A stretch of 64,000 nt of DNA, from positions 1,072 through 65,071 of the forward strand of contig JACROU010000045.1 of assembly GCA_016214265.1 (NCBI GenBank), in the 5' to 3' direction. Source of the DNA: Candidatus Omnitrophota bacterium. Its GTDB lineage: Bacteria > Omnitrophota > Omnitrophia > Omnitrophales > JACROU01. The notes beneath the pieces were generated by a model. It saw nothing but the letters and a program-made list of their open reading frames with translations, had not been told where the DNA came from and ran no database searches. Of this stretch, positions 1 through 63,100 are shown piece after piece. Position numbers and translations under genes: made by a program. How positions within the stretch are numbered: the first letter of the stretch is position 1; each line of letters opens with the position of its first letter.

Positions 1-1010
1 CGAATGGCCTCGCCTTTTTTCCCGCCCGTCGCGACCAGAACAATTTCGCGCGCGCGGCGAACCTCACCGGCCAACGTCAGCGCTTTGACCGGAACCAAGT
101 TTATGTTTGTGAAATACCGGGAATTATCAAGAATGGTCGGCAGAGCAAGGTGAACCAGCTTGGCTCCCGGCTCGAAAAATTCAGCCTCGTCTTTGAGAAT
201 AAGATTTTTCATGAGATGCGCAGGGATCTGGGCCAAAATTTCTTGTGCTTTTTCACGAGTCAGATTACGGATGTAAAAGATGGTGTTCTGATGATCCAGC
301 AATCGCCGGCCCAAAATATCCAATTCGGCTCTGAGGTCTCCACGATCCGCATCGGGACGATATTTGGCAAGTTCGTCGACCAAGTCTGAAGAATTCCCCA
401 AATTACTTCTGAGCCTCAGACGCAGCTCAAGAGCCCGGGAAATCGCCTGACCAAGCTCGCCTTCGGCCACATCTAAGCCGACGGTAAACTCATTAAAATC
501 GCGGAGTGTCAGCTCGGATATTTCTCGAGCCGGCTCAACGAACGCGAAATGCCCGTCCTTGCCGATGCCGAGAAGCTGCCAGTCGATGCCGCCCTTCTCG
601 CGGATTTTCGCCAGATATTCTGAAATTTCTATTCTAGGATCCTCGGTCTTACCACGAAACAGATGTGTGCTCTCACGCTTGAATGCCCGGGCCGGATCAA
701 TTTCCCGGAGCCGCGCAAACAGATGCCCCTCCATATAATACCGGTAGCTTTGAACGTGCTCTGGACTCAATCCGAAATACTCATCCAGATTAAAAGTAAC
801 AACACGGGAAAAATCGATACTGGAATCGCGGCGGAACATCTCGACCACTTCGTCATAAACCGATTCCATCGTCCCGCCAGTCGCAAGGCCAAGCACCGCA
901 TCGGGCTTCGTCTTCACCACCTGAACCAGCCGCTCTGCCACGTCCTTCGGCAATTCATTTTTATTTTGAATGACTTGAAGTTTAATTTTTCCGGGAGGAG
1001 TGATTGAATC
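1..1010 (-). other. glucosamine-6-phosphate deaminase / 6-phosphogluconolactonase (NagB/Pgl)-like domain, truncated by the window edge
   Basis: AVLGLATGGTMESVYDEVV, VVTFNLDEYFGL, IDWQLLGIGKDGHFAFVEP (revcomp of cggctcaacgaacgcgaaatgcccgtccttgccgatgccgagaag at 531-575), ...ILDNSRYFTNINLVPVKALTLAGEVRRARNIVLVATGGKKGEAI at 1-60. Confidence 0.6.
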
Positions 1011-4000
1011 GGATTGACCTAAACTCAAACCGTTAGAGGAAGACTTCGTTCGCTGATCGTACGTATTCCTGATAAATACTTCTAATTCAGACTCGAATGA
1101 AAATCCTTCATGACTTTTTGCAGCTTGATAAATTTCTTCCTTCAAAGCTGGCGGCGCTCGATTGGGCAGCAATTCAAAAACCATTTCGCGCGTGATCCGA
1201 ATTCTTTCTTTCCGGACCGGTTCCGATTCTTCCGGGCGTGTCATCACAGCCCCGCGATTTAAAGATTCCGCGGCAGTTCCAGACACAGCGGCTTTTCCTT
1301 TGTATATATGTATGACAAGGGCATCCAACTGTTCACGAACTAATCCCGCTGGCACACTTGGATCAAGACCGATCCCAAACTCCCCGTCTATTTGCGTCAT
1401 GAAAACATTTTCGTTATTCGTTCTATCATGAATCGCCTGATGGGAACCGACAAAATTTTCAGTAACGTGTTCTATTTTTACCTCATAGCCATGCTTTCCA
1501 AGTTTATCCGTAATTAGTTTCTTCCATTCCTCAACAAATCCGCCCAACCGCCGCTCCTTTTCACTCACATTCAATTTTTCCCATTCAGAATAAGCCGAAC
1601 CGGAATAAACACGTGTGGGATAAGGCATCACATCTTCGACAAAAGTCATTACTTCCGTTCCCGGTGAAGCCGGAACCATGAGGCGGCTGAATTCCCGGAA
1701 CACATCATCCATTTCCGCAACCGTCATATAACCTAGAGCATCAAAACCAATAATACGTTTAAACGTATGTTCTGGTTTCGGAATTTTTCTCCAATCACCA
1801 GCGATCGTTTCAATTCGCGGATAACGTGATTGAATATCTTTCAAAGGTCCGGTCATATAATCCGTGACTGACATTTTCTGAACCAAGCTTTCCGGCAGCG
1901 GAGAAACCTCCCCTGTCTTATCCTCTAAATAAACAAGGTCCCGTCCCTGCCCCACGCCGATATCGAGCACACGTTCTCCTTCCGACAAATTTTGATCGAA
2001 AGGATTCCAAAATAATCGCGTTAACAACTGAGCGCGGGCCCGCTCCACTCTTTTCGTCGCTGCTTCTAACTCAAAATAACGGGAACGGGCATAACCTTTA
2101 ACAACAACACGCTTGATCAAATTCAATTCGCCGGCATAAAGATATCGGGCCAAAGCTCCGTCATCCAAAACAAACGGCTGAGATAAGAAATATAAATTGT
2201 TCTGATTGTCTACAAGATGGGTGCCTGTTACCATCGCGGTTTTACGATCCCCCTCCGTAAGTACGGGCTGGATGTTTCGAACGGGTTTAGTTTTCAGATC
2301 AGTAACCAAAGTGAAGACAATCTTACGCCCGCCCATTAATACAACCTGCAGGGAAACAGTGGCTAAATTTTCCCCGATACGCAACTGACTCCATTTTTCC
2401 GGATTGCGAAGCTCCAGAAAAACTTGTATCTCTTGAATATCATTGGGAGTAACCGGAAAATGCGCCGCTAACGTCAACGCTTTTAAAAACACCGACCCCT
2501 CTTCAGCAAGAATAAAATCTGATACGGCATCCTGAAACGCAGCGTATTGCTTCCGGGGTTTTTTCTCACCGCTGGCATTTTCGAATATCTTTCTTACTTG
2601 TTTTTCCAATTCAACAGGAATCCGGGTGATTGCAGATGGTTCGGTAATCACATTTTCATCTTGGCACCACAATGCGGGCATAAAAGTCTTGTCGGATTTC
2701 ACGAAATGCGTCTTGGATTGCAACCTCCACACATCAGTTAAATCCCCTTCAAAATCCTTACCCAAACTCGCGCCGCCTGCCGGGATGCCCGCTTGCGGGT
2801 CGGCTGGCGAGTTCTTGGTGGAGCGCGACAGTTCAGAAATTTCTTTATTGGAAATTGGATTTGATCTTGCTCCCGACGAACCCAAAGATTTTCCGGAGGA
2901 ATTAAAATCGGGCATGGCTTCGGGAATAGAAGCTGTCGGCGAGGCAAATGGAATATCATTTTTGGCGACCGCGGGAAAAACGGATCCGTATTCGCGTTTC
3001 AAAATCTGGCGAAACGCGTCGTATTTCCCGTCCGCTTTCAGCGCTTTAGCAATTTGGGCATGAATCCCCCCGAGCGCCGCGAGCACAGTCGTCATTTTTC
3101 CGTCCCACGTCAAAAGCGGCGCGATGGCGTTGCCGTCCACACTCGCCGACTCGACAGTGCCAAAACGGCTTTGCATTTTGGGACCCTTGAGCATCACATC
3201 AAGCCAGGCCAAGGCAATTCCTGAGGGTCCGGCCAACATCACCGGAAACACCGCGTACGGCGCCACCACTTTTTTATTTTTGACGGGTTGAAGCGCGAGC
3301 TCCGGAATTCCGGACTCTGCCAGATACGCGGGATTCTGATTGCCAGTCACCACATCGTGCGCGGACGCAAAAAGTCCCGGAATTTTATTCAGAGCCGAAT
3401 TCCAGGTTCTGGCCCTTTCTCCATTTTCAAAAATCTGACGGACTGTGGGGTCATCGGTATACGGAAGAATTAAATATTTCCACATTTCGTGCGATGAAAA
3501 CCAAAATCCTTTGAGTGTCGTCAGTCGGCCTTGAGGCGTTTTGAAATCCGAAGGCTTCAGATTGGGACGCTGATTGGCCCAAACCTTGTCCGCTTCCTTC
3601 GCGTCTTTCCATCGGCCAAAAAGAGTAATGAAGAAGGTAAAGAGCTCACCCTCATAAGGGTCTGCCAGAAAATTCGTATTGCTCAAATAATTTTCCTGGG
3701 AAGGTGCGGCATTCACATTTTTGATTTTGACCTCACCGCGAATTTTTCCGCCGCCCTCGTAGAACATCGTGACGGCATTCTGAGCCATCATATCGAACCG
3801 GGTTTTGTAACGTGCCGCTAGATCTTTGTGACCTTTCGCATCCAGCGCGTGATAAGCGGCATAAAGCGACCAGGCCAGCTGGCCGTTATCGAGCGCGGGC
3901 ACGCGATCCTGCCAGTCCCGCGTAGGCTGCATTCCACCATCGCTGACTAAAAACCAAGGCAGAAAACCGCCGAAACCGGGGTAGGTGCGACTGAATTTTT

Positions 4001-7000
4001 CGTAACTCGTAATTTTCTTCGTGAGAATGTCAACGGCCCGGGCTTCGGCCTTCGCGAGATTATCCGGGGACATAAACAATTTCACCCGGTCGTCTTCCCC
4101 CAGCACCGCGAGTGCCGCCAGCGCCACTTGAAGCGATTCTTTAGATGCCGCGCTCCAATTTCTTGGGCCACCACGCAACTCACCAGTCTCAAAATCAATC
4201 GAATGGCCGTCATAAGTCAGTCCGGAACCGGCGTTGTACGCAATTCCCGGCTGATGAAACTGTCCCTCCCAATACAACAATTTCCGAAGGTAAGCATCCG
4301 CCAATTCTTTTTTGCCGATCAAATCTTCCGCTTTAAACTCGGGGGCAAATCGATAATTTCCTTTAGGTTCCTGCACCGGCATTTTCCCGGCAAACGCAAA
4401 AGCGGCCGCCACGCCAATAAGAGCCAGAAACTCTCTTCGCGAAAAGCTTTCTTCAGAATTTCCGAGACTTGAAGCTTGAGAAACGGGGAAAAAATGAGTC
4501 ACGATTTTGCTAACCAGAGGATGAGAAATATTCAATGATTTTCCCATCAGCCGCACCATTTGATCCAATAATGCCTCAAAACTTTCCTTGGCATCCCAAG
4601 AAAGGTTGCCAAATAATCGAATCATGGCTTTTTCAAAATTTTTCTGATTAAGAACCGCCTCTTGTTGATGAACAGCTTCATTGACCGGCTTATTCGGTTC
4701 CGACGCGCAAATTTGTGTTGTAAAACTGGGACTATGAACTAATGCTCCAAAAACTTCGGGAATGCGATTAATCGTGGCATTACTAACAACAGCCGGCGAT
4801 ATTTCAATTAATGCCTGGCCGACCTTAATAAAGTGTTTGATGAGCTCTTGTTCATCCTCTCCCTCATTGGCCCCCAAACTTTGCGCGGCTGTGACCACCG
4901 TCCCCGCATCGGAGCCATTTTGAAAAACTTTTTCGATATGTTCCGCGTCGGTGATAATTCCACGCCGCGCGCCGCCATCCTTAACGAAAGCCAGCGTGGC
5001 TTCCACTTTGGGCCCCATGCTGCCGGGAGGAAACTCCCCTTCTTTATAATATTTTTCGAGTTCGCTCACGGAGGGACGAACCAACTCTTTTTCGGATAAC
5101 TTTTTGAACTGCACTTTGACACGCGGAACGCCGGTCACAATCAGAAGATTTTTCAGATTCAATTCTTTCGCCAGAAGCGCGGAACTGCGGTCTTTGTCGA
5201 TCACGCCCTCCAGCGCTTCAATCACATCGACTTCTCGGTAGCGGATCGGCACTCCGCCGCCACCCACGGCCACCACAATTTTTCCGGCCGTGAGGGCTTC
5301 GCGAATATCCTGGAGATCTTTCGGAAAAATTGAAAGCGGTTTGGGCGAAGCCACCACCCGGCGCCAGCCTTTTCCCGGAACATACGTAAACTGCCATCCT
5401 TTTTCTGCCATCAAAGCATTCTTCTGATCCTCTGAATTGTATGGACCAATGGGTTTGTCAGGATGATGAAACGCTTCATCGTTTGGATTTACAATCACCC
5501 GGGTCGGATTCAGATAAATTTCCGGCAAATTCGGAAGCTCATCTTTTTTGATTTCTTCGTAGGCGCGTAAAATATATTTTCTGAAAATTTCGGTCTGAGT
5601 TTCAGCCACCAATTCATTCAGTCGCGGCATTTGCTGAATCTCTCCGGCTTTCAATTGTTTTTCTTTTTCAAGCCAGAGGTCGCCGACTTGCGGACCATTA
5701 CCGTGTGTAATCAAAAGCGGAGTTCCGGGCCGGTAAAGCCGCAGCACGCGCCGGAGCATTTCTTTGACGTTGCGGTACTGCGCCTCATCTGTGCGAATAT
5801 CTTTTAGCGGTCCAGACTCAGCAATGAAGGCATTTCCGCCGAGCGCCACTGCCGTTCCTGAAAGCCCGACTGCACCCAAACTGGAGCCCTGAACCCGCGC
5901 AAACGGAAACTCGATTTTAAAAATGGGCGCCTGTCCTCCGGAAGTCAGCAACAACATATCTCCGCCGTAACTTTCGATGAGTCGTTTGGATAAATTCAGC
6001 CCCACCCCGGCTTCCGGACGCGTCTTGTCATCGGACTTGCCTTTTTTGAATAACTGCGGAATTGTTTCGGAATTAATGGGAGCACCGTTGTTGCCGACAA
6101 ATAACACCACCTTGTCGGTGTTTGGGTCATGACCGGCCTCGATAGTTACTTCAGTCGCATGATGTTTTTTCGCATTCCGGATTAAATTACCCAGAACAAA
6201 AATCATTCCCAATTTGGAAACACGAACTGGAAGCGGAGCATCAGGAATAGATACCTTGATGTCAAAAGAGCTCTCGGTTTTTCCTTCGGCTTCCGCATTA
6301 ATTCTTTCTTTGTTTAAATAAAGATGCCGGGTGATTGAAACGATTTTTTTGACATCTACAAATTTTTCGTTCACTTCCCTAGCTGCTCTGGAACGCCGAA
6401 TCACATCCATCAACTCTTCAAGACTTTCGCCCAACAAAACAATCACCGCAATTTTTTCGAGAACAAGCATTTCGATAGTGGTCAGCAGCAGGTTTTTAGG
6501 CAAATCCTGCTGCGCCTCCCTCGCAAAACGAACCATCAAACTCAAATTCAGGAGAATCCTCCAGATTTTTTTGAAAAAATCGTCCACTTTTGTATTCGGA
6601 TTTGGCTCGATCTCCTCTTTTCTCAGATCATTGTTGAATCGGTAAACCAGGTTGGAACCAGCTTGATGAATCTTTCTCAATTGCACTTCTTTCCCAACAC
6701 TAAATATTCCTTCGAGAGGCAAGAACTTCGAAATAGAACCCAAATGGGTATGAATGGGATTCAGCCATCCGGCAAGCTCATGGAAAGCCATGCCGACGAT
6801 TAGCAGCTGATCGGCCTTGGAAAGCTCTGTTCGGATAATACGGAAAGAACTCTTGCCTTCAGGGTCCTTCAACAACTCTAAAGCAACGCTTCTGTCATTG
6901 TTGCGAGGAAAATCCCGGTTCATGTCAAGAACGACATATCCAAAATCCGGACGTTCTTGTGCGTCCAAAATCAAATTGGCGCCGAAAATGCTGAAACGTT

Positions 7001-9434
7001 TTTCTTTCAATCCCCAAAATCCGAATTTTTTTGCCACATCGTCCCTCGGGGGAGTGTGGCCAGAAAATAAAGCGGCCAGTTTCATCCGGGAAAGATAGGT
7101 CGCCAAAAAATTGGCATCGTACTTTCGGAGAAAAAGGAGAATGTACAGCGCATGATTTTCTTTGTAAAAGTAACCGTCTTTCAGCAAGTTAATTATCTGA
7201 TTCCAGCTTTTTAATCTAAAGGAGGGCCTGGCATGGACCAGCATGACATGCTCATCACCCATCCGAGCGCGGATTACGATAGGCCAGCTTTTAAAAAAAT
7301 CCGACATCGCAATTAAAATTGCGGGGCCATGTTCTTCAAAATAACCATAATGCTGCTTAATATAATTTTCAAAATCCGATGTCTGAGATTGTTTTATCTT
7401 GGAATCAGGCGGGGCTCTTAAAATTTCGACCTGACTTCCAGCAATATGCGACAACTCATGATTGCCAAGTACCGCATGCACATTCCGGGGAAAGCCGATT
7501 TTCAGTTTCATAAAAAGCGCCAGCGTCGCAAGGGTTTGTGTCTGGGCGTCCTCTTGTTTCATCAAATCCCCTGAAGGATGAATCAGGTCGCCTAAAAATA
7601 CCAGGTGAAGACCGCCATCCTGAAGTCCCGTGAGAATGCCCGGCTCGCGGAGCAGCGAGGTTAAATGATAGAAATGTCCCTGCATATCCCCCACCACCGC
7701 CAATTTTTTTCCGGTTTCAATATTCAAGAGCGCGCCAGGTTTCATTTCCCAATCCAGCGGACGCTCACTTTCCGAATAGGTCATCGCTTCCCTGGCGTCT
7801 TCAAACAACTGTTTCAGGCCGCCAAGATTAAGTTCATCTAAAAACTTTTTAGGATCTGTAGGAATTTCAAATTTCGTTTTTGCTTTTTTTATCTCCCCCA
7901 GACTTGCCGCGGCGGCGGATACAATAGCCATGCGCGTGGCAACGACAGTTTCTCCGAGGCTGGCCGCTAGCGCCGGACGACCCTGAGCCAGCTGGGCCAG
8001 CACCAATCCGGAAGTTTTGATGCCACGCGTCATCGATTGGCGGTAAATCTTCGAGCTGTCACCGTCAACGTTGGGACGAATCGTGACATGCGGAATTTGG
8101 CGATTGTTGAAATATTTGTTCAGACCCTCAGTATGAAATCCACCGGTTATCAAAATGGCGCGGGAATTCTTCGATTGCCGAAGCTTTTCTTCAATTTTTT
8201 TCATAAAAACGTCTTCGCGTGCCTCTGCGGCTGCATAAAATGAATAGGCTGGAGAGACTATTGGCCGGCCGCCCTTTAGCTCTTCCCACTCTTTTCGGGT
8301 CAACTCAAGTGACACGAGTCCGCGAAGTAAGCGAAAATTTCGGACTTCTTGAACAAAACTTTCAGACACCATCGCGGCAAGAAGCAACTCCATCAGCCGT
8401 TTGATTTCTTCAAAGAGCGGGGCACTTTCGATTTCGTACTGAAAAATTCGGTTGCGCGCATAACGCGTAAAATTGGGATAATTCTCGAACTTGAACCCGC
8501 GGGGCGCGGCGGATTGATACAGTCTTTCGGTAACATGACGGTAATTACACACCCCGTCAACTTCGTCGCCACCCCTCTCAAGATGAGACTTCATCCAGTT
8601 ACCAAATCTTTGTTTGATCTCAGCCTCTTCTTTGCTGGCTTTTTCAAAATCAATCAGCCCTTCTTCGGCCTTCAGCTGAAACAGACGGACTAAATTGGGA
8701 AATTCGATTTGTTCTTTGGCATCCGCCAAATCACGATAGAGATACATTTTTGTGAAACGGCTCAAATCTGCCGTCACGGATGACCAATTCGCGTTCTTCC
8801 GGTCAAAGTCCAAATATTCCCGCAACAGAATCAACGCGTCTTTTTTCAACTCCCGAGAAGCTTTCCGGTCCAGCTGTTGACGGATTGTTTCCAAATTTCT
8901 TTTCGATTCGGTTTCATGACGCATCACGTCCCTGAAAAGATCAAAGTTTTTCCGGTAAAGCGCGGCATCTTCGATACCAATGGCATGAAGTCCCTTCGTA
9001 TTCAAGGCAAGCTCCGAGCCCGTGATTTCGCCCAAATCAACCAATTTGTCGATGAGCTTATGGTTCAGCTGCGGATTTTGAAGAAATCGGAGATACCGGG
9101 AATCCAGCTCCTCGACCGCGCCTTCAACAAAAACAGTTGTGATTCCATAATTTTTGAAAAGATATTCAATGATTTTTTCGGTATTTCTTTGTCCAGAAGG
9201 ATTTCCGTGAGCATCTTGAATATGAATCAAAAAGGGGCGGTCAGCAGAATGAGCCAGCGAGGCGGATTCGATGGCACCTAACTCAACGGGAATTTGAATT
9301 TGTGGAAGCGGCTCAACACGGACTTCTGAAGGAAGATTGCCGTAAGCGATGGTGTTGGACAAAAAACACACAATGACCGCAAACGCAACAATACGCTGGC
9401 TTAATTTTGCGAGCCTTCCTGGCTGTGATTGCAT
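1..9434 (-). CDS. giant multidomain protein; 5' end (ATG) at 9434, 3' end beyond the left window edge, at least 3144 codons in window. Domain order: signal-anchor, metallophosphoesterase, GHKL/HATPase_c, carbamate kinase-like, Tat-like hydrophobic segment, (alpha/alpha)6-like, SAM methyltransferase-like, NagB/Pgl-like
   Basis: No complete ORF of 60 aa or more is listed on the minus strand across 1-9434 except two short off-frame ones, and plus-strand ORFs are all short. Minus-strand translation starts at ATG 9434 (AGGGTGGA 11 nt upstream, in-frame TAA at 9462-9464). It reads MQSQPGRLAKLSQRIVAFAVIVCFL... and stays open; motifs checked against the plus strand at 7456-7484, 6075-6098, 5680-5711, 4382-4447, 3841-3920, 1937-1978 and 531-575 all fall in the same frame (first codon base congruent to 2 mod 3). 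Confidence 0.7.
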   Translation of the reverse strand, partial: MQSQPGRLAKLSQRIVAFAVIVCFLSNTIAYGNLPSEVRVEPLPQIQIPVELGAIESASLAHSADRPFLIHIQDAHGNPSGQRNTEKIIEYLFKNYGITTVFVEGAVEELDSRYLRFLQNPQLNHKLIDKLVDLGEITGSELALNTKGLHAIGIEDAALYRKNFDLFRDVMRHETESKRNLETIRQQLDRKASRELKKDALILLREYLDFDRKNANWSSVTADLSRFTKMYLYRDLADAKEQIEFPNLVRLFQLKAEEGLIDFEKASKEEAEIKQRFGNWMKSHLERGGDEVDGVCNYRHVTERLYQSAAPRGFKFENYPNFTRYARNRIFQYEIESAPLFEEIKRLMELLLAAMVSESFVQEVRNFRLLRGLVSLELTRKEWEELKGGRPIVSPAYSFYAAAEAREDVFMKKIEEKLRQSKNSRAILITGGFHTEGLNKYFNNRQIPHVTIRPNVDGDSSKIYRQSMTRGIKTSGLVLAQLAQGRPALAASLGETVVATRMAIVSAAAASLGEIKKAKTKFEIPTDPKKFLDELNLGGLKQLFEDAREAMTYSESERPLDWEMKPGALLNIETGKKLAVVGDMQGHFYHLTSLLREPGILTGLQDGGLHLVFLGDLIHPSGDLMKQEDAQTQTLATLALFMKLKIGFPRNVHAVLGNHELSHIAGSQVEILRAPPDSKIKQSQTSDFENYIKQHYGYFEEHGPAILIAMSDFFKSWPIVIRARMGDEHVMLVHARPSFRLKSWNQIINLLKDGYFYKENHALYILLFLRKYDANFLATYLSRMKLAALFSGHTPPRDDVAKKFGFWGLKEKRFSIFGANLILDAQERPDFGYVVLDMNRDFPRNNDRSVALELLKDPEGKSSFRIIRTELSKADQLLIVGMAFHELAGWLNPIHTHLGSISKFLPLEGIFSVGKEVQLRKIHQAGSNLVYRFNNDLRKEEIEPNPNTKVDDFFKKIWRILLNLSLMVRFAREAQQDLPKNLLLTTIEMLVLEKIAVIVLLGESLEELMDVIRRSRAAREVNEKFVDVKKIVSITRHLYLNKERINAEAEGKTESSFDIKVSIPDAPLPVRVSKLGMIFVLGNLIRNAKKHHATEVTIEAGHDPNTDKVVLFVGNNGAPINSETIPQLFKKGKSDDKTRPEAGVGLNLSKRLIESYGGDMLLLTSGGQAPIFKIEFPFARVQGSSLGAVGLSGTAVALGGNAFIAESGPLKDIRTDEAQYRNVKEMLRRVLRLYRPGTPLLITHGNGPQVGDLWLEKEKQLKAGEIQQMPRLNELVAETQTEIFRKYILRAYEEIKKDELPNLPEIYLNPTRVIVNPNDEAFHHPDKPIGPYNSEDQKNALMAEKGWQFTYVPGKGWRRVVASPKPLSIFPKDLQDIREALTAGKIVVAVGGGGVPIRYREVDVIEALEGVIDKDRSSALLAKELNLKNLLIVTGVPRVKVQFKKLSEKELVRPSVSELEKYYKEGEFPPGSMGPKVEATLAFVKDGGARRGIITDAEHIEKVFQNGSDAGTVVTAAQSLGANEGEDEQELIKHFIKVGQALIEISPAVVSNATINRIPEVFGALVHSPSFTTQICASEPNKPVNEAVHQQEAVLNQKNFEKAMIRLFGNLSWDAKESFEALLDQMVRLMGKSLNISHPLVSKIVTHFFPVSQASSLGNSEESFSRREFLALIGVAAAFAFAGKMPVQEPKGNYRFAPEFKAEDLIGKKELADAYLRKLLYWEGQFHQPGIAYNAGSGLTYDGHSIDFETGELRGGPRNWSAASKESLQVALAALAVLGEDDRVKLFMSPDNLAKAEARAVDILTKKITSYEKFSRTYPGFGGFLPWFLVSDGGMQPTRDWQDRVPALDNGQLAWSLYAAYHALDAKGHKDLAARYKTRFDMMAQNAVTMFYEGGGKIRGEVKIKNVNAAPSQENYLSNTNFLADPYEGELFTFFITLFGRWKDAKEADKVWANQRPNLKPSDFKTPQGRLTTLKGFWFSSHEMWKYLILPYTDDPTVRQIFENGERARTWNSALNKIPGLFASAHDVVTGNQNPAYLAESGIPELALQPVKNKKVVAPYAVFPVMLAGPSGIALAWLDVMLKGPKMQSRFGTVESASVDGNAIAPLLTWDGKMTTVLAALGGIHAQIAKALKADGKYDAFRQILKREYGSVFPAVAKNDIPFASPTASIPEAMPDFNSSGKSLGSSGARSNPISNKEISELSRSTKNSPADPQAGIPAGGASLGKDFEGDLTDVWRLQSKTHFVKSDKTFMPALWCQDENVITEPSAITRIPVELEKQVRKIFENASGEKKPRKQYAAFQDAVSDFILAEEGSVFLKALTLAAHFPVTPNDIQEIQVFLELRNPEKWSQLRIGENLATVSLQVVLMGGRKIVFTLVTDLKTKPVRNIQPVLTEGDRKTAMVTGTHLVDNQNNLYFLSQPFVLDDGALARYLYAGELNLIKRVVVKGYARSRYFELEAATKRVERARAQLLTRLFWNPFDQNLSEGERVLDIGVGQGRDLVYLEDKTGEVSPLPESLVQKMSVTDYMTGPLKDIQSRYPRIETIAGDWRKIPKPEHTFKRIIGFDALGYMTVAEMDDVFREFSRLMVPASPGTEVMTFVEDVMPYPTRVYSGSAYSEWEKLNVSEKERRLGGFVEEWKKLITDKLGKHGYEVKIEHVTENFVGSHQAIHDRTNNENVFMTQIDGEFGIGLDPSVPAGLVREQLDALVIHIYKGKAAVSGTAAESLNRGAVMTRPEESEPVRKERIRITREMVFELLPNRAPPALKEEIYQAAKSHEGFSFESELEVFIRNTYDQRTKSSSNGLSLGQSDSITPPGKIKLQVIQNKNELPKDVAERLVQVVKTKPDAVLGLATGGTMESVYDEVVEMFRRDSSIDFSRVVTFNLDEYFGLSPEHVQSYRYYMEGHLFARLREIDPARAFKRESTHLFRGKTEDPRIEISEYLAKIREKGGIDWQLLGIGKDGHFAFVEPAREISELTLRDFNEFTVGLDVAEGELGQAISRALELRLRLRSNLGNSSDLVDELAKYRPDADRGDLRAELDILGRRLLDHQNTIFYIRNLTREKAQEILAQIPAHLMKNLILKDEAEFFEPGAKLVHLALPTILDNSRYFTNINLVPVKALTLAGEVRRAREIVLVATGGKKGEAI
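1500..2300 (-). other. class I SAM-dependent methyltransferase-like domain within the giant ORF
   Basis: Motif I ERVLDIGVGQGRDLVYL verified at 1937-1978 (plus strand gtcccgtccctgccccacgccgatatcgagcac), followed by RIIGFDALGYM and EFSRLMVPASPGTEVMTFVED. Confidence 0.5.
2700..4300 (-). other. (alpha/alpha)6 six-hairpin glycosidase-like region within the giant ORF (family unassigned; DUF3131/GH144-like is a guess)
   Basis: Segment ...DGGMQPTRDWQDRVPALDNGQLAWSLYAAYHALDAKGHKDLAARY... verified at 3841-3920; aromatic/Gly-rich helical repeats. Assignment is by resemblance only. Confidence 0.3.
4382..4447 (-). other. internal twin-arginine-like motif plus hydrophobic segment, SRREFLALIGVAAAFAFAGKM
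   Basis: Codon-by-codon revcomp of 4382-4444 gives S-R-R-E-F-L-A-L-I-G-V-A-A-A-F-A-F-A-G-K-M in the ORF frame. Confidence 0.5.
4865..5900 (-). other. carbamate kinase-like (amino-acid kinase family) domain within the giant ORF
   Basis: VALGGNAF near the start; signature LLITHGNGPQVG, read as revcomp of gccgacttgcggaccattaccgtgtgtaat at 5680-5711; KIVVAVGGGGVPI; GSMGPKVEA; ends at ...GSDAGTVVTA (about 4870-4925). Confidence 0.65.
5950..6260 (-). other. GHKL / histidine-kinase-like ATPase (HATPase_c) domain within the giant ORF
   Basis: N-box-like LGNLIRNAKKH, G1-like VLFVGNNGAPI (plus strand aatgggagcaccgttgttgccgac at 6075-6098), G2-like GVGLNLSKRLIESYGG. Confidence 0.5.
7040..7710 (-). other. 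calcineurin-like metallophosphoesterase domain within the giant ORF
   Basis: Motifs VVGDMQGHF (about 7672-7698), FLGDLIHPSGD and VLGNHE (7467-7484, plus strand ctcatgattgccaagtac), then SGHTP (about 7045-7062). Confidence 0.6.
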
Positions 9435-9470
9435 TCGAACGAGATCCACCCTTAGAGGAATTTAGGGGGA

Positions 9471-12635: not shown

Positions 12636-14801
12636 TTATAGAATTTGCTGTAATTCCCGAAAAAAACTGACGCCGGCTCCCACGGAAGAGGGTTTGCCAC
12701 TCAAAAGATCTTCTGCTTTCCGCTTGGCTTCGGCCATTTTGGGATAACGCACCTTTCGGTAACCGCGCACTTCTTCGGGGATTTCGAAAATTTTCACGTA
12801 AGACTCATAACGCACTGTCCCGCCCGGAGAAAAAGCATCCACCAAACCGATATACCAGTCGCGAAATTCTTTTTCTTTAGCATGCCAAGCAGGCAGCAAC
12901 ACGCGCAGAATTTTAAAATGCTTCATAATGTTCAGCATCCAATCTTTCGTCCTCATGTTCCATTCTAAATCAAACCCCAGAATGGTGAATTGCGGACGAT
13001 TGATGTGCTCATAGACTGCCTTGTCGCCGCGTTTTGGATCAACATCGTAGCGCTCAAGATCACGTCGGTATTTTTCAACGCTCGTCAACAGATGCGCCAC
13101 ATACACCTCATCTTTGATGAGCATCACTTTGGCAAGATAACGAATCACGGCTTTTGTGACTCGATAATCATTTTCGGAATTGTCTTTCACATAAACCGTT
13201 TTGATTTTATCAAAATATTTCTGGGCATATTTCAGATTTTCGAATTGAATCAAATCATAAGCGCGCAGGGCAATTTGCAGATTGATAGTATCATCCAGTT
13301 TTAGAAACTCCACCAGCGCTTCCACCCGTTTTTTATATTCCCGGGCCAGTCTTTTACTTTTTTTCGAAAGAATCTTGATTTTATCGTCTAGCATTTCCGA
13401 GTATGTGGCCAATTTGGCTTCTATTGCATAAACCTGAGGATTAAGTGCGATTTTTCGCCCGAGATTAAACGCTTTCATGTTGTCGTCAAACGCGCTTTTC
13501 GGGACGGTCATTTGAATGGACCACTCAAGATTCTTAAAATCGACTGGCAATTCCCCTCGTTGATACGCAGCGCCCAGAATCATCATATTGGCATAAATCG
13601 TATTGCCAAGCATGCGCTGGGCTACCTCCGAAACATTCGCGCCGAAATATGTTTCACGCTTTGTTGCACGACGAATCATCTCCTCAAGTTCAGCGGGCAG
13701 AAAATTATCTTCTCCAAGCAGCATGGTGATAGTTGGCGTTTTCTCGGTATTGATCACAGCCGTCGTAAAATCCGGACTACCGATGCGTTGAGTGAGCGTC
13801 GGATCCAGACTGCGCACGCTTTCGAGAATGTCCATCCCCAAAAGCAGGTCCGCCTTGCCGTACGGGATAATCGGAGAAATAATTCCGTTGCCATTTCGCG
13901 TATACGTTACGTGTGAGAACACACCGCCGTTTCGAATGGCAAGACCCTTTTTATCCGCAAAGCTGACGCGATATCCCTGGCGCATTCCAGCCCTCACTAA
14001 AATCGCCGTAACAAGACCGATACCCATACCACCGACTCCGGAAAGATAAACGGACCAACCCTTGTCAAAAGTGCGGCGCTTGGCCTCGGGAATATCTGAA
14101 AAATTGATTGAATCGACGGGTCGTACGGGAGCTTGTTTCCGGATCACGGTAATTTCTTCAAAAGAGGGGCACGCCTTTACGCGGTAACAAGCACCATCCG
14201 ATTTGCAAAGTGAAAGATCGGTGGCAATTTTGGGGCCATAATGAGTTTCTTCAATCGTCAAACCGGGACATCCGGTGGTTTTCGTACACTCCAAGCAGAA
14301 CTCACAGACTTCCGGAGTAATGTTGACAAATTTTTTCTCGGGCATATAGCCGATTTTTTTGATTACGTCCCGCTCAGCGCGAACGACTTTGCGGTCGTAG
14401 GTGATACCGCATTCTTTGTCAGCAATCACCACCTTGACACCTTTTTTCAGCACCGTCTCTTCCATTAAATGTCGGTAACTGTCCCGGTATTCAGGATTCA
14501 CACGATAAACCGGCACTTCCCCATTTTTCGCCATACCGCTTACGATGGATTCAATATTTTGTTTAAACGTGGAATTCCCCAGAATGTCAACATTCTGTCC
14601 CGGATTCGGCTGATGGCCGGTCATGGCTGTTGTATCGTTATCCAAAATAACAATCAAAATATCCTGTCCGTATTTCAGCGCGTCGGAAATAGCGATCATG
14701 CCGGAGTGAAAAAATGTGGAGTCGCCCATAAAAACAACCTGCTTGTTCTGGATAAAACGATCGATACCAGCACCTGTTCCCGGTCCCACCGGTGTCTCCA
14801 T
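12636..14801 (-). CDS. indolepyruvate:ferredoxin oxidoreductase family, C-terminal part (TPP-binding, 2x[4Fe-4S], IorB-like); frameshifted from upstream part
   Basis: GDSTFFHSG TPP motif; CEFCLECTKTTGCPG and CKSDGACYRVKACPS ferredoxin motifs; long IorB-like C-terminus. Overlaps ORF 14638-16158 in another frame. Confidence 0.7.
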   Translation of the reverse strand: METPVGPGTGAGIDRFIQNKQVVFMGDSTFFHSGMIAISDALKYGQDILIVILDNDTTAMTGHQPNPGQNVDILGNSTFKQNIESIVSGMAKNGEVPVYRVNPEYRDSYRHLMEETVLKKGVKVVIADKECGITYDRKVVRAERDVIKKIGYMPEKKFVNITPEVCEFCLECTKTTGCPGLTIEETHYGPKIATDLSLCKSDGACYRVKACPSFEEITVIRKQAPVRPVDSINFSDIPEAKRRTFDKGWSVYLSGVGGMGIGLVTAILVRAGMRQGYRVSFADKKGLAIRNGGVFSHVTYTRNGNGIISPIIPYGKADLLLGMDILESVRSLDPTLTQRIGSPDFTTAVINTEKTPTITMLLGEDNFLPAELEEMIRRATKRETYFGANVSEVAQRMLGNTIYANMMILGAAYQRGELPVDFKNLEWSIQMTVPKSAFDDNMKAFNLGRKIALNPQVYAIEAKLATYSEMLDDKIKILSKKSKRLAREYKKRVEALVEFLKLDDTINLQIALRAYDLIQFENLKYAQKYFDKIKTVYVKDNSENDYRVTKAVIRYLAKVMLIKDEVYVAHLLTSVEKYRRDLERYDVDPKRGDKAVYEHINRPQFTILGFDLEWNMRTKDWMLNIMKHFKILRVLLPAWHAKEKEFRDWYIGLVDAFSPGGTVRYESYVKIFEIPEEVRGYRKVRYPKMAEAKRKAEDLLSGKPSSVGAGVSFFRELQQIL

Positions 14802-16158
14802 GAAACAGTAAGTCCACCGGCCCTGAGTTGTGATTCTTTTTCATGTACTCGGAATTCATAAAATCTTTTTTGATTTCGAGAAATACGCTGGAGGAATCCC
14901 GGTGCGGACACCCTGGACAGAATGTCGGTGTGCGGCGCGGAATGCGAACAGCAAATTGAGCGGTTTTTTGTATCAACCCGAGCTCGCCGTCCCAAACTTG
15001 ATCCAGTTTCGGCAAATCACTGTCTTTGATCCAACGGAAAAGCGGCACAAGGCGTTCGATTAATATCGAAGTGTTAATGCCGCGGGTTTCGGGAATACCA
15101 GCAAGCGAGTCCGGAAATTTCTTACCCCAAACTTTCGGCATAGAGGTGATAGTCTCGTACTGAAAGGCGTCTTTCAATATTTGCGTGATTTGAGATTCGA
15201 TAAAATCACGTTTTTCCTCAACGATAAATAGCTCCTCAACGATTTTCGAAAACTCCAAAATAGTTTCGGGATCCAGCGGATACGTCAGTCCAAGTTTCAG
15301 GATTGGAATTTGTCCCGTCATCCCTAGCTCGCGAAGCGCATGTTCCAAATAACTGTGAGCGAGTCCCGACGTGACGAACCCGAACCGGCGTTTTTTGCTT
15401 AATGCCGGACGGTATAAAATCTTATCCAGTTGTTGTGAACGAACGAATTTATGCAGATCCGCGAAACGTGCTTTGATGTTCTCTTCACGCTGAGAAGTGC
15501 GCGGCGGAAGGATCACCGTCTCTTCGACAGGGATTTTTTCTGTGTTAATGCTGATACGGTCTTTCGTATTAATGGTAGAGAATACGTTGGGATTACATTC
15601 CACGGTTCCCCCGCCGTCAGCAAGATTAGTCGTGATAATAAACGTGATATAAAGATTGGCGGCGCGCGAGGCTTCGAACGAAAGCCGTATCCAGTCTTTG
15701 ATTTCTTGAAAAGTTGCCGGCTCAATGATGGGCATAAACAAATGTTTGGAAAGAAAACGCGAATCGGAAGGAACTTGCGTACTGTCAGACCACGGATCGT
15801 CCCCAACAACCACAACCGCACCGCCCGTGTGGCCGGTCTTTGCCATATTGCCGAGCGCCAGTCCATCCGAGGCCACATGAAGCCCAACGCTCTTCATTAC
15901 GCAAAGTCCGCGAAGATCAGACATCTGCGAACCGTTCAACCGCGCGACGCCCAGAGCTTCGTTGTTGGCGATTTGAAGCAGAATTCCTTTTTCTTTCAGG
16001 AGATCATCCGCTTGTTTGGCGATATTAAAAAAATCGGCAACCGGAGAACCGGGATAGCCCGTAAGTAAGCTAACACCCGCTTCCAAAGCGCCTTTAAAAA
16101 GCAGCTCAGTGCCGCTAAAAACCTGAACTCCTGATTTCTGAGTAAAACGTTGATCCAT
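14638..16158 (-). CDS. indolepyruvate:ferredoxin oxidoreductase family, N-terminal part (pyrimidine-binding domain)
   Basis: GYPGSPVADFF, VVVGDDPWSDSTQ, TFCPGCPHR. The frame runs out shortly after ...HNSGPVDLLFHGDTG, while the other frame reads ...ETPVGPGTGAGIDRF. Confidence 0.7.
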   Translation of the reverse strand: MDQRFTQKSGVQVFSGTELLFKGALEAGVSLLTGYPGSPVADFFNIAKQADDLLKEKGILLQIANNEALGVARLNGSQMSDLRGLCVMKSVGLHVASDGLALGNMAKTGHTGGAVVVVGDDPWSDSTQVPSDSRFLSKHLFMPIIEPATFQEIKDWIRLSFEASRAANLYITFIITTNLADGGGTVECNPNVFSTINTKDRISINTEKIPVEETVILPPRTSQREENIKARFADLHKFVRSQQLDKILYRPALSKKRRFGFVTSGLAHSYLEHALRELGMTGQIPILKLGLTYPLDPETILEFSKIVEELFIVEEKRDFIESQITQILKDAFQYETITSMPKVWGKKFPDSLAGIPETRGINTSILIERLVPLFRWIKDSDLPKLDQVWDGELGLIQKTAQFAVRIPRRTPTFCPGCPHRDSSSVFLEIKKDFMNSEYMKKNHNSGPVDLLFHGDTGGTGNRCWYRSFYPEQAGCFYGRLHIFSLRHDRYFRRAEIRTGYFDCYFG

Positions 16159-23821: not shown

Positions 23822-23898
23822 TGGTGCCCTCGGGCCGAGTCGAACGGCCGACATCCTCCTTAGGAGTGAGGTGCTCTATCCATCTGAGCTACGAGGGC
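23822..23898 (-). tRNA. tRNA-Arg (anticodon CCU), CCA encoded
   Basis: Revcomp GCCCUCGUAGCUCAGAUGGAUAGAGCACCUCACUCCUAAGGAGGAUGUCGGCCGUUCGACUCGGCCCGAGGGCACCA: 7-bp acceptor stem, D-arm GCUC/GAGC, anticodon loop CUCCUAA, T-arm GGCCG-UUCGACU-CGGCC. Confidence 0.85.
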
Positions 23899-26070: not shown

Positions 26071-29000
26071 TTATTCTGATTCCTCGGCGGATCTGAATGT
26101 TTTTACTGCAGTATCTGCTTCTGGTGCTGAAATAGTGACCCGGCCTTTTGAAAACGAATTAGCACGAAGTGAATTTGCAATATTTTTTCGAAGTGAAGCA
26201 TCGTGCTTCTTGAGTGGACTTTGAGTCACATCCCGGAATACCCGGTTGATAATTAAGCCGCCGCGCGGCTCGTCAAGATCGGCCGGCAGGACAAGTTCAT
26301 TTTGTTCCAACGTCGCTCCGACCACGCCTTCGAACGCCTGACGCAGCATCCAGCCGGCAGCTCCGGTATAGCCGTGCCAGATCATGCGTCCCTGATCAAA
26401 GTTGGTCAGAATGTCCGCAGATTGTTTGTTCGGCTGTCCGCCATAAATTTCAATCTCCTGTGGAACCACGTGAGAAATCGGCGAGATTTTCAACCAAAGC
26501 CGGTAGGCAATCTCGCGATACTCTTTAGCTTTCGCCTCGTTACCCTGACTTTGGAATTGTTCGGACAGAATGCGTGCCGCACGAACCAGCCACTGAACGC
26601 CGTGGCAATACATTCCGTTTTCACGAACGCCTTCCGGATATTTACTGCTTCTGCCTAGATAAGGCTTTGTGTCTTCCCGAAGCGCCGGCCATCCGAGCAA
26701 AATAGCATTTTCTTTTTCGAGCACGGAGAGCGCGGTATTAAAAACGGTGAGCGCACGCTCTTGATTGATGCCTGCCATCACGGCCCATGCCGCTGTGAGG
26801 GCGTCAATTTCCCAAACACCGCTTCCCTTAATACCGATTTCGGTACCATCATCGTGAAAAGCGCGCAAATACCGGTCTTCCCTCCACGTTTTTTCAAGCG
26901 CCTCGCCGAGAGCCGTCATTTTCTTTTGATAATGCTCTTTGCGTTTCGCGCCGTCTTTTTTTTCGATAATATCGAGCATATTTTTCAGGATGTAGTACAC
27001 GAAAAATCCCAGCCAAATACTTTCTCCTTTGCCTTCACTGCCGATCTCATCCAATCCATCATTCCAGTCGCCGGTTTGAATCAGCGGAAGACCATTTTTC
27101 CCCGTGCGTTTTTCGAGCACAAGATCCAATGACCGCAAACAGTGGCGATACACAGAATCGGACCGGGTTGACCGGTGATAAATATGTCCCCAGCCGCCCT
27201 TGTTTTTGGGCAGTGGTGCATAAGGAAATTCCGCAGAAACGTAAGACGTCACTTCATCGAGAATGGAATGATCTCCAGTGGCCCGAACATACTCGACCGC
27301 GCCCCAAGCCAGCCAAACAGGATTGTCTGAGGCTTGCGACCGGCAGGAAAACGCCGTACGTCCATCGGTGAGCGTGAAAAACCAGTGATACACATCCCCC
27401 TCGTAAAACTGATGGGAAGCATGAAGAATAATCTGTTTTCGGGCCAGCGCCGGATCCACCCAAATTAAATTCACGGTATCCTGCAACTGATCGCGGAAAC
27501 CATACGCTCCGCTAGTTTGATAGAAACCACGGCGCGCCCAAACACGTTCTGCGATAGCCTGATATTTGAGCCAGTTTTGCAAATGATCAAATTCCGGATT
27601 GTTGGTGTTAATTTCAGCCGTTTTAATGAGGCTGAGCCACCAATTACGCGTCTCTTCAAGACTATTTTGAACATTCTGAATATTTTTGTACTTCTGAACA
27701 ATCTGACGCGCTTCTTTCTTGTCATCAGCCTGTCCCAAAATCACGGAGATCGTGCATTCCCCATGAGCGGGAATTTCCACGCTTCCCAGAAAACCGGCGA
27801 TCTGTCGGATGTCAGTATACTGCGCAATATCCGGCCGGCCTTCTTCGACAAAAAATGGACGCGTAACGCCACGGCCGGAACCAAAAAACCGCCCGCGTAA
27901 AGTTTCCACGCATTTCGCCGGAATCGACATGGAGGCAAACGCCCAGCCGGAGCGGAAAATATTGCGCGGATTTTCAAAATAAAGCGCTCCCGAAATTTTG
28001 TCATGTTCCACCGGCAAATTCCCTGCTCGTTCCGGCTGGAAGGATAGCACCATCTGAAAATAAGGGGCCACGCGCATCCGCCTCGATTTATCCGAAGTGT
28101 TTTTTACGGTTAACAAATACACTCCTGTTGGTTCCGTAGGAGGAACAAACACGGTCAACTCCGTCGAAAGCGAACCATCGGTCATACGGAAAACGGCCGT
28201 TCCATCAACACCGAATTCGGATTCGTGCTTCGCGGTTGTTTTGTTCAGCGGATGATACGTAGGCGAAAACCATTCATTGCTGTCCGGATCGTAAAGATAA
28301 ATAGCTTCCGCTGGAATTTCTTTCGTCACTGTATCCGGCCAATCAGGTGTCAGTCGATTCTGCTGTGAGTTGCCGTTACACGAAGTGTGCAATCCGCGGT
28401 TCGTCACCATCACCGAATGAATTTCATTCGACATCGCGTGATCATACGGTCGCGGCGTAAACGGTGTATGCACCAGCAGTTTTCTTCCCTGGTCGATGTA
28501 TTCGGAATAAGGTTGCGGGGTTCCGGGCGGAATTTCACCGTGACCGATCAGCGGGAATTTCTTTTTCACCGGGGCACCAGACAGAGTTCTATCCACATGG
28601 GGCTTCAAATGTTTCTGAATCAAATCAAGAGCGGCTTCTTTATTTTTCGCATAGCCGACCATCAACCGGACGGACTTGGAAGCTCTTGCCTCTACGGTCA
28701 CGCCCAGCATCAAACTGCCAATCGGGTCAAATGTCGGATACGGAGCGGTATCGCGAGATTCCAAAAAGTCGAAGGTCTCGAAAATTCTTGGTTCCCAAAT
28801 ACTGCGGGCACGGCCAATAAAATCCATGCGGGAAGTGAGAAAACCTTCCGGAGCAATATCCGCCGCCAAAATACCGATAGATTTCGTCCCCTTTTGCCAC
28901 GCCAGGACGGCATTGGCTTTACTGACATATTCCATTTCGGGGAACAGCCGGGAGTACTGCGTGTGGAAACGGTCATGAATGCCACCTTGCAACACCCACT

Positions 29001-63025: not shown

Positions 63026-63100
63026 CGTCCCCAAGGGGATTTGAACCCCTGTCAGCAGATCGAAAATCTGCTGTCCTAGGCCAGACTAGACGATGGGGAC
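63026..63100 (-). tRNA. tRNA-Glu (anticodon UUC), CCA not encoded
   Basis: Revcomp GUCCCCAUCGUCUAGUCUGGCCUAGGACAGCAGAUUUUCGAUCUGCUGACAGGGGUUCAAAUCCCCUUGGGGACG; close to E. coli tRNA-Glu; anticodon loop UUUUCGA. Confidence 0.85.

Follow-up and report, generated by a model that had tools for sequence, protein, structure and literature searches.

A Giant Modular Open Reading Frame in an Omnitrophota Contig

The window analyzed in this work is a stretch of 64,000 nucleotides of contig JACROU010000045.1 from a Candidatus Omnitrophota bacterium, the beginning of which is occupied, on the minus strand, by a giant open reading frame (ORF) that strings together domains of unrelated enzymes. Inside this ORF, ahead of a module related to endo-beta-1,2-glucanases, lies a motif that resembles the signal peptides of the twin-arginine translocation (Tat) pathway. 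We describe here the ORF, the short recurrent peptides that separate its modules (which we refer to as junctions), and the protein family to which it belongs, and we discuss a reading of the motif that we hold at about even confidence on the basis of sequence comparison, namely that it is a working export signal of the glucanase cargo module that becomes N-terminal after cleavage at the junction ahead of it.

The frame extends from position 9461 to position 3 of the minus strand, comprising 3,153 codons without a stop, and leaves the window at its start; its first Met lies at nt 9434. Residue numbers in the following refer to this open frame. NCBI has the same product in partial form (3,501 aa), from a Candidatus Omnitrophica metagenome-assembled genome (MAG). 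This protein, hereafter P0121, differs in numbering (the motif discussed below falls at ~1,665 instead of aa 1674) and is itself truncated at the end of its contig. A separately assembled Logan contig (SRR12113407_1847) was located through the 182-aa pyrophosphatase gene of the window, an exact look-up of the 131-aa neighbor gene having given no match. This contig is 99.9% identical to the window and differs from it within the ORF by eight single-nucleotide polymorphisms (SNPs), four of them synonymous. The ORF is open there as well, and because a separately assembled contig with SNPs keeps the frame open, we conclude that the giant ORF is no sequencing or assembly artefact.

Pfam places Metallophos, HATPase_c, AA_kinase (carbamate-kinase-like), Methyltransf_25 and Glucosamine_iso domains in the ORF, and PF26157 is among the precomputed domains of P0121. 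The resulting layout is summarized in Table 1, together with the remaining features of the window.

Table 1. Coordinates of the Giant ORF, Its Modules and Junctions, and Other Features of the Window
Feature	Position (nt)	Strand	Remarks
Giant ORF	3..9434	-	3' end incomplete (runs off the window); identical to P0121
N-terminal family-defining module, aa 10-500	7962..9434	-	N-terminal in all 120 homologues listed
N-terminal hydrophobic anchor, aa 24-39	9345-9392	-	Basic n-region, then IVAFAVIVCFLSNTIAYG
Double junction AASLGE...AASLGE, SLG at aa 501-503 and 520-522	7896..7961	-	SLG at nt 7953-7961 and nt 7896-7904
Cargo module with Metallophos (aa 586-804) and HATPase_c (aa 1088-1187)	5883..7895	-	Pfam
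Junction GSSLG, SLG aa 1194-1196	5874..5882	-	7 aa past HATPase_c, 9 aa before AA_kinase
Carbamate-kinase-like cargo module (AA_kinase aa 1205-1503)	4881..5873	-	Pfam
Junction AQSLG, SLG aa 1528-1530	4872..4880	-
134-aa module, aa 1531-1664	4470..4871	-	Contains M1639; no Pfam match
Junction ASSLG (AGT CTC GGA), SLG aa 1665-1667	4461..4469	-	Proposed processing site
Candidate twin-arginine signal peptide N1668-A1691	4389..4460	-	n-region NSEESFS; RR at nt 4434-4439
Putative SGL endo-beta-1,2-glucanase catalytic module, aa 1702-2191	2889..4358	-	PF26157
Junction GKSLG, SLG aa 2192-2194	2880..2888	-	Where standalone SGL proteins end
Junction GASLG, SLG aa 2232-2234	2760..2768	-
Cargo module with Methyltransf_25 (S-adenosylmethionine (SAM)-methyltransferase, aa 2498-2597)	1026..2759	-	No hydrophobic segment
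Junction GLSLG, SLG aa 2813-2815	1017..1025	-
Glucosamine-6-P isomerase / 6-phosphogluconolactonase-like (NagB/6PGL-like) cargo module	3..1016	-	Glucosamine_iso aa 2836-2973; extends past the window
Indolepyruvate:ferredoxin oxidoreductase-like gene	12636-16158	-	Two overlapping ORFs, 721 + 506 aa
2,508-aa gene resembling cyclic beta-1,2-glucan synthases in layout	26071-33597	-	Second very long gene of the window
tRNA gene	23825-23898	-	Rfam
tRNA gene	63026-63100	-	Rfam

A Twin-Arginine-Type Motif Ahead of the Glucanase Module

Residues 1674-1692 of the giant ORF read SRREFLALIGVAAAFAFAG, as part of the longer stretch NSEESFSRREFLALIGVAAAFAFAGKMPVQEPKG at residues 1668-1701. An earlier note, made from the letters of the window alone, had placed a Tat-like signal at 4382-4447, and both the coordinates (S1674 at nt 4440-4442, K1693 at nt 4383-4385) and the motif itself hold up. 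The core S-R-R-E-F-L-A agrees with the consensus S/T-R-R-x-F-L-K at 6 of 7 positions, and is followed by an h-region, FLALIGVAAAFAFAG, of 15 uncharged residues (nt 4386-4430), which is within the ~12-20 residues usual for Tat, and then by a c-region in which A-F-A precedes G-K, that is, an A-x-A-type end with a basic residue behind it that forms a possible signal-peptidase site. Canonical Tat signals, as described by the TIGR01409 and PF10518 models, have the same core and likewise combine an h-region that is short and moderately hydrophobic with an A-x-A-like end and a basic residue behind it; they are, however, N-terminal, whereas the present motif is internal as encoded and scores below both curated thresholds. 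Its arginines stand at aa 1675-1676, while those of Tat signals lie within the first ~35 residues. The SLG tripeptide at aa 1665-1667, one of the junctions, ends 7 residues before the first Arg, such that a cut there, as proposed below, would leave the RR pair at positions 8-9 of the new N-terminus.

That the resemblance to a Tat motif arose by chance is extremely improbable, even though the curated Tat hidden Markov models (HMMs) do not reach their thresholds: the expectation for [ST]RR.FL followed by 13 uncharged residues is 1.3e-4 in this ORF, the pattern appeared in 2 of 20,000 composition-preserving shuffles, and the motif stands exactly where homologues of the downstream module carry their signal peptide, being conserved in the closest of the embedded relatives (L002, see below).

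The motif could also stand near an N-terminus if the glucanase were translated on its own from an internal start at about M1639, the long ORF then being an artefact or the product of read-through. An in-frame ATG does lie upstream, at nt 4545-4547, 35 aa before S1674 and not about 40 as had been noted; initiation at this codon would make the arginines residues 37-38, farther from the N-terminus than Tat signals usually have them. Between the junction at 1665-1667 and the RR pair none of the start codons ATG, GTG and TTG occurs, and M1639 is not preceded by a Shine-Dalgarno-like sequence. A promoter and terminator scan around the junction gave counts at the level of shuffled sequences, with no minus-strand promoter-like site upstream of the motif; the internal ribosome-binding site or promoter that the earlier note had considered is thus not seen there. 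The composition profile has no break at the junction, and the in-frame stop just upstream that would make these two adjacent genes is not present in the independent assembly, where the frame is open. As the frame is kept in two assemblies that differ by SNPs, and the same fused arrangement recurs in three relatives (L002, L003 and L004), we consider separate translation very unlikely.

The earlier note had further located the motif exactly at the border between a block of cytoplasmic-type enzymes and a glycosidase-like block with exported relatives. It does precede the glycosidase, and nearly all full-length homologues among the 120 listed do carry a signal peptide; the motif is not, however, directly at the carbamate kinase boundary, as the 134-aa module listed in Table 1 lies between the two.

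The Embedded Glucanase and Its Standalone Homologues

Homology assigns the block behind the motif to the endo-beta-1,2-glucanases of the SGL/GH162 type (PF26157). We found 300 homologues of this SGL module, and all 120 of those listed are annotated with PF26157. The standalone matches are proteins of 500-900 aa whose catalytic domains are 40-53% identical to the module, the best of them aligning at 48% identity (E=5e-156) over 92% of the query. A set of 60 standalone homologues defines 58 columns with a conservation of 95% or more, and the module keeps 56 of these, for which reason it looks functional.

The boundaries of the module can be read from the same comparison. The C-termini of the standalone homologues map to aa 2190-2192, which is to say to the next SLG of the giant ORF, and at the other end an N-terminal signal peptide is present, in nearly all of the full-length proteins among the 120 homologues listed, at the same position as the motif, ending 10-30 aa before the conserved [YC]-[RQ]-F-A start of the catalytic domain (here Y1702-RFAP). 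Standalone secreted SGL/GH162 enzymes share with the embedded module a signal immediately upstream of [YC]-R-F-A, and differ in that their signal is at the true N-terminus and usually of the Sec type, whereas here it is internal and of the RR type. One standalone homologue, P0059, does have an RR-type signal, starting MDRREFL; the nearest standalone homologues have Sec-type signals, not RR-type.

We note that a second very long gene of the window encodes a 2,508-aa protein with three ~200-aa N-terminal repeats, a long region with multiple transmembrane (TM) segments, and C-terminal GH94 supersandwich and catalytic domains, a layout that resembles that of cyclic beta-1,2-glucan synthases. This synthase-like gene may be functionally linked to the beta-1,2-glucanase embedded in the giant ORF of the same window.

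A Family of Giant Proteins Defined by a Shared N-Terminal Module

With the whole protein as query, 211 proteins were retrieved at E <= 1e-10. Those listed, 120 in number, are 1.7-5.5 thousand amino acids (kAA) long, and the ones with a named source all come from Omnitrophica/Omnitrophota, with one exception. There is no close orthologue of the whole protein in the databases searched, and the next-best whole-protein matches share only the N-terminal module and the HATPase and kinase block. It is the N-terminal module of ~470 aa (N-module) that is common to all 120 listed homologues, and by which we define the family in this analysis. A profile of the N-module, run against 1.84 billion proteins, retrieved 6,741 cluster representatives at E <= 1e-30; the module is N-terminal in all 150 of the representatives listed, in proteins of 548-7,498 aa. 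These sequence matches place the ORF among thousands of giant multi-enzyme proteins of Omnitrophota, a family whose members share the N-module and carry, according to their Pfam lists, a changing set of metabolic and regulatory enzymes as cargo.

The invariant residues of the N-module, numbered by its alignment, are H76, E104, E155, R406 and GGFH431-434; the ORF carries them all, with H76, E104, E155, R406 and H434 corresponding to H85, E113, E164, R415 and H443 of the open frame. Neither Pfam nor NCBIfam matched the single N-module, and PF04187 (ChaN, of the Tiki superfamily) matches it in 3 of 15 members with E-values down to 4e-4. An AlphaFold2 (AF2) model of the N-module has a mean predicted local distance difference test score (pLDDT) of 81.7, and its top Foldseek matches are the erythromycin esterase EreC and BcR135 (E 0.03-0.2). 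The profile was also searched against PDB sequences, yielding only coiled-coil noise, which was rejected. The N-module thus appears weakly Tiki/ChaN/erythromycin-esterase-like, and its candidacy as the junction protease is only a lead from these models; no protease Pfam was found in the giant ORF.

Complete members of the family also have a conserved C-terminal module (C-module), which begins right after the last junction motif, and the smallest of them, at ~1,000 aa, consist of the N-module and C-module only. The last residues are -AA or -SA in 167 of the 237 family proteins, an ending of the C-module that resembles an ssrA-like C-terminal degron. Modeling of the C-module with AF2 (pLDDT 62) gave Foldseek matches to generic Rossmann-like folds, which we discarded.

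Junction Motifs at the Module Boundaries

The SLG tripeptide occurs eight times in the window ORF, against 1.4 copies expected, and ten times in the longer P0121, against 1.57 expected. All copies in the ORF fall between Pfam domains, at module boundaries; the carbamate kinase module, for example, has one SLG 8 aa ahead of its start and another at its end. The same holds for P0126, in which 0 of 10 SLG copies lie inside a Pfam envelope. This comparison covers P0121 and P0126, and Pfam made no domain assignments in P0125 and P0133. The codons of SLG vary from copy to copy (AGC CTC GGA, AGT CTG GGG, AGT TTG GGT, TCT TTG GGT, and others), which points to selection or conservation at the level of the peptide, and for which reason a nucleotide-level repeat or recombination scar at the junctions was rejected.

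The core junction motif is [AG]-x-S-L-G in the lineage of this ORF and R-[SA]-E-x-R in related lineages. The SLG class has [AV]-x-[AG]-[AS]-S-L-G as its extended consensus, and 86% of 150 sites carry A or G at position -2. Among the 120 homologues listed, 19 fall into the SLG class and 54 into the R[SA]ExR class, and the most over-represented tripeptides in the first 120 proteins are SLG or RSE, at ~10x expectation. The class of junction tracks the similarity of the N-module (Mann-Whitney P = 4e-4): the 11 proteins whose N-modules are closest to that of P0121 have 3-10 SLG each and 0-1 RSExR.

Two other roles for these motifs were considered and appear unlikely. The Ser of the RSExR class is replaced by Ala in 14% of sites, which speaks against a phosphorylation or nucleophile role for this residue, and the junctions have no NPGP-like context that would accompany a 2A-like ribosomal skip.

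Two further elements next to junctions deserve mention. Following the N-module, two identical AASLGE junctions 19 aa apart (aa 499-523) enclose the semi-hydrophobic 16-mer TVVATRMAIVSAAA, which could be a small released peptide or a stop-transfer-like element. An element of ~60 aa, RITREMVFELLPNRAPPALKEEIYQAAKSHEGFSFESELEVFIRNTYDQR...SLG, is present twice, at aa 2755-2815 (nt 1017-1199, minus strand) and at aa 3414-3473 of P0121, outside the window; both copies directly precede an SLG junction, and the element was found in none of the others among the 237 family members.

Export-Type Signals Directly Behind Junctions

We counted the uncharged hydrophobic stretches of at least 13 aa whose first residue is no more than 30 aa behind a junction. 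The first set of proteins has 56 of them, against 22.9 expected, and in an independent set (P0241-P0357) there are 45, against 19.1 expected. Pooled over 237 family members, this amounts to 101 stretches against 42 expected (Poisson P = 9e-15).

Many of these stretches have the form of textbook signals, of several kinds. Lipobox signals stand behind junctions in P0122 (...AASLG/RPFYPTKWIRAFVLGGWLLSAGC) and P0133 (...LLAGALGLTAC), and Sec-type signals in P0155, P0165, P0166 and P0180. Tat-type sequences follow a junction in P0282 (RSELR, then TRRTFLQAGALAALGLAAL after 3 residues), P0344 (RAETR, then GRRDFLSSVIAAAVGSAARVSAQE after 2), P0322 (RSESR, then SRRDFLS...AGAQS after 2) and P0163 (RSEVR, then SRRTLLK after 10). 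Across the 18 internal Tat-like motifs that are found in proteins with a recognized junction class, a junction ends 0-35 aa upstream in 11, where 9.2% are expected (binomial P = 7e-8). Three internal sites exceed the TIGR01409 cut-off of 16.7 bits on their own, namely aa 3729 of P0150 (23.9 bits), aa 2009 of P0222 (19.4) and aa 2476 of P0282 (19.3). Pfam made no domain assignments in the five modules behind internal Tat-like signals in relatives that were submitted to it. The succession of junction motif, signal peptide and exported-type module appears to be family-wide, and appears not to have been described before.

Embedded SGL Modules Keep a Hydrophobic Pre-Sequence

Among genome representatives, MAG binchicken_co125_1162 provides the sequence most similar to the SGL module (L002, 53% identity over 546 aa), closer than any standalone homologue. 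L002 too is embedded in a giant ORF of the same family, in this case of the RAExR class, and its pre-sequence reads ...FLPTAKRAELR/GVRGNGSPWRRYLAAAYLGILSPFSSSFIRAEERAP/YRFAPDY, in which the junction RAELR occupies the position homologous to ASSLG. The spacing from RR to YRFAP is exactly 25 residues in both L002 and the window ORF. Two metagenome relatives, L003 (64% identical) and L004 (59%), likewise have an embedded SGL module, with a hydrophobic anchor and a long linker before the catalytic domain, and P0311 and P0180 have embedded SGL modules with a hydrophobic pre-sequence, such that a pre-sequence of this kind is kept in all six embedded SGL modules found (P0121, L002, L003, L004, P0311 and P0180).

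We also observe, at aa 1330-1334 of the open frame of L002, a junction-like RAEER where the signal region ends, with 2 aa between it and YRFAP. The L002 module might be trimmed there by the junction protease and not by signal peptidase, or the RAEER might be coincidental.

These comparisons bear on whether the motif is a fossil, left when a gene for an exported SGL enzyme entered the giant ORF along with its signal peptide, and now idle, though not yet decayed. The earlier note had offered this as one of two readings, with the fusion arising through loss of a stop. The proposed origin stands, in that standalone homologues have signals at the same position and an exported enzyme would have been captured with its signal, but the event is not a one-off accident, because the ORF belongs to a family of thousands of proteins with junction-separated cargo modules. 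Relatives show the same uninterrupted fusion with a junction that is conserved and not degenerate, and by these sequence criteria the signal is not decaying: L002, at 53% identity and with a junction of another class, retains the RR pair, the hydrophobic stretch and the spacing of 25 aa, while a hydrophobic pre-sequence is present in all six embedded modules. Signals are also enriched directly behind junctions across the family, and, since the nearest standalone homologues are Sec-type, the RR form is not simply inherited from them. The sole near-identical sequence available is 99.9% identical, so selection on this particular copy is immeasurable, and the Tat HMM scores are below threshold, as an idle signal would allow; taking both sides into account, we judge a fossil to be quite unlikely.

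Proposed Processing of the Giant Precursor

In P0121, clearly hydrophobic segments are limited to two, namely the N-terminal anchor and the 15-residue run of the motif, and this poses a problem of topology for an uncut chain. If the N-terminal side of the run were inside and the C-terminal side outside, the methyltransferase, the NagB/6-phosphogluconolactonase-like module and all modules downstream would lie outside the cytoplasm; in the opposite orientation, it is the carbamate kinase and the ATPase that would do so. This conflict would disappear if the chain were cut at the SLG sites on either side of the SGL module, and the same cuts would place the RR pair near a new N-terminus.

We therefore propose the following sequence of events. 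The giant protein would act as a chassis, made up of the conserved N-module (and of the C-module in complete relatives), with captured enzymes strung between. Cleavage of the precursor would take place at the junction motif or beside it, which for the SGL module means the flanking SLG copies at aa 1665-1667 and at aa 2192-2194, and the released module would start at ~N1668, with the RR pair, the 15-residue h-region and the A-F-A/G-K c-region then forming an ordinary twin-arginine-type signal. The SGL module would be exported post-translationally, plausibly in a folded state, via Tat, to a compartment with beta-1,2-glucans, while its ATP-, SAM- and sugar-phosphate-dependent neighbors would remain cytoplasmic. 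A signal of the twin-arginine type is well suited to such a module, whose translation, and perhaps folding, would be complete while it is still part of a precursor. The motif, the module borders, the junctions, their association with signal peptides across the family and the conserved RR pair of L002 are observed in the sequences; we infer from this pattern the cleavage itself, the scissile bond, the involvement of a protease, and the use of Tat rather than Sec.

The run could instead be an uncleaved internal start-transfer or signal-anchor sequence, with its N-terminal side in and its C-terminal side out, that displays the SGL module on the outer membrane face while keeping it tethered. The earlier note's second reading, of a membrane-spanning or cleaved internal segment, comprised both possibilities, and of these the cleaved version fits best. 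Tethering would be in line with a 2026 preprint that treats the giants as intact membrane proteins with many TM helices (bioRxiv 10.64898/2026.06.07.730766), with the Pro/Glu-rich linker, a feature typical of tethered enzymes, that follows a longer anchor in three other embedded SGL modules, and, in the RR pair on the N-terminal side, with the positive-inside rule. The uncharged run is, however, just 15 residues long, and no hydrophobic segment follows the SGL module that would return the methyltransferase, the NagB/6PGL-like module and the later modules to the cytoplasm. An uncleaved anchor also leaves unexplained the conserved junction 7 residues upstream, as well as the fact that lipobox and Tat signals, which normally act at an N-terminus, follow junctions throughout the family. 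On balance, we consider it unlikely.

A number of observations weigh against processing followed by Tat export and should be considered alongside the above. Both Tat models recognize the motif, but below their cut-offs, with 14.3 bits for TIGR01409 (cut-off 16.7) and 11.1 bits for PF10518 (cut-off 22.7), and TIGR01409 does not match the RR segment of L002 either; we note that it also misses the genuine N-terminal RR signal of P0059. A scan of the 64-kb window for TatA-like ORFs and Tat substrates found no tatA, tatC or other Tat substrates, and the literature that we searched contains no paper linking Omnitrophota to Tat. In L003, L004 and P0311, the pre-sequence is a KK-type or plain anchor with a long linker, which could tether the module without cleavage. 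The enrichment of signals behind junctions is ~2.4-fold and not absolute, and the association of Tat-like motifs with junctions rests on a loose regular expression that gave 11 matches in forward and 4 in reversed sequences. Finally, the N-terminal anchor predicts that the N-module lies outside the cytoplasm, which is hard to reconcile with its cutting junctions in the cytoplasm, and also with a cytoplasmic location of the remaining chain.

Extending the processing scheme to the family as a whole, we suggest, with a little less than even confidence, that the giant ORFs of Omnitrophota are bacterial polyproteins that replace operons and are cut at lineage-specific junctions that co-evolve with the chassis, after which the modules use Sec, lipoprotein or Tat signals of their own. 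The Tiki-like N-module and the C-module ending in -AA/-SA would then be the chassis that carries the captured genes, and a single translation product would be spread over cytoplasm, membrane and periplasm, SRREFL being one of the signals by which this is achieved.

Other Features of the Window

The indolepyruvate:ferredoxin oxidoreductase-like gene, split into two overlapping ORFs in the window, is undivided in the 99.9%-identical Logan contig (L001 4240-7827), where its product has 1,195 aa, and the two sequences differ there by ~65 nt (L001 5610-5675). The split could reflect a real deletion or frameshift or a difference in assembly. The two tRNA genes listed in Table 1 are the sole Rfam matches in the window.

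Relation to Known Systems and Implications

Long precursors whose internal hydrophobic signals translocate the domain downstream are familiar from flavivirus and pestivirus polyproteins, which are cleaved by a dedicated protease on the cytoplasmic side and by signal peptidase on the far side. Those polyproteins are viral and are inserted co-translationally into the endoplasmic reticulum, whereas the present one is bacterial and chromosomal, carries metabolic enzymes as cargo and a signal of the twin-arginine (post-translational) type, and its cleavage is a proposal. In MARTX toxins, conserved N- and C-terminal regions flank variable enzyme modules that are released by cleavage after Leu at short sites, and SLG, too, has a Leu followed by a small residue. 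The cargo differs, however, in consisting here of housekeeping-type enzymes, in modules that carry the bacterium's own export signals, and Pfam detected neither a cysteine protease domain (CPD)-like domain nor RTX repeats in the giant ORF. By analogy of layout, we regard flavivirus polyproteins and MARTX as the closest working analogues, neither being a family to which this protein belongs.

Giant genes of Omnitrophota have only lately been described, by West-Roberts et al. (bioRxiv 10.1101/2023.11.21.568195), who proposed proteolysis with cleavage points that were unknown, and whose analysis was blocked by this missing information. The described giants have the same phylum label, tiled unrelated enzyme Pfams (HATPase_c, methyltransferase, sugar metabolism) and an N-terminal anchor or signal, as here, and cleavage into smaller products, as we propose, had already been suggested for them, with no cleavage sites given. 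They were catalogued above a threshold of 10 kAA, whereas this ORF, at 3.5 kAA or more, is much shorter than that limit. The later preprint cited above defines 'class 1 multi-enzyme metabolic clusters' and models the giants as intact membrane chains; signal-peptide calls on later chunks of four proteins of at least 100 kAA were discarded there as chunking artefacts. In the literature that we searched, we did not find junction motifs, a shared N-module or signals directly behind junctions reported for these giants, nor anything relevant on RSEVR/RSEMR motifs, an Omnitrophota polyprotein or twin-arginine export in Omnitrophota.

The question addressed is whether the giant proteins of Omnitrophota are single chains or are cut, and where. 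The motifs [AG]xSLG and R[SA]ExR are concrete candidate cleavage sites that earlier papers could not name, and signal peptides of a kind that normally functions only at an N-terminus, directly behind them, lend these sites independent support. For annotation pipelines, the practical rule would be to split such ORFs into modules at the junctions, and, if the proposal is true, topology predictions that count internal signals as TM helices, or that drop them as artefacts, would need revision. It would also mean that bacterial polyprotein processing takes place on a large scale, in thousands of genes, and that export signals can be activated by a new route, in which those of the Tat, Sec and lipoprotein types stay inactive until proteolysis has taken place.

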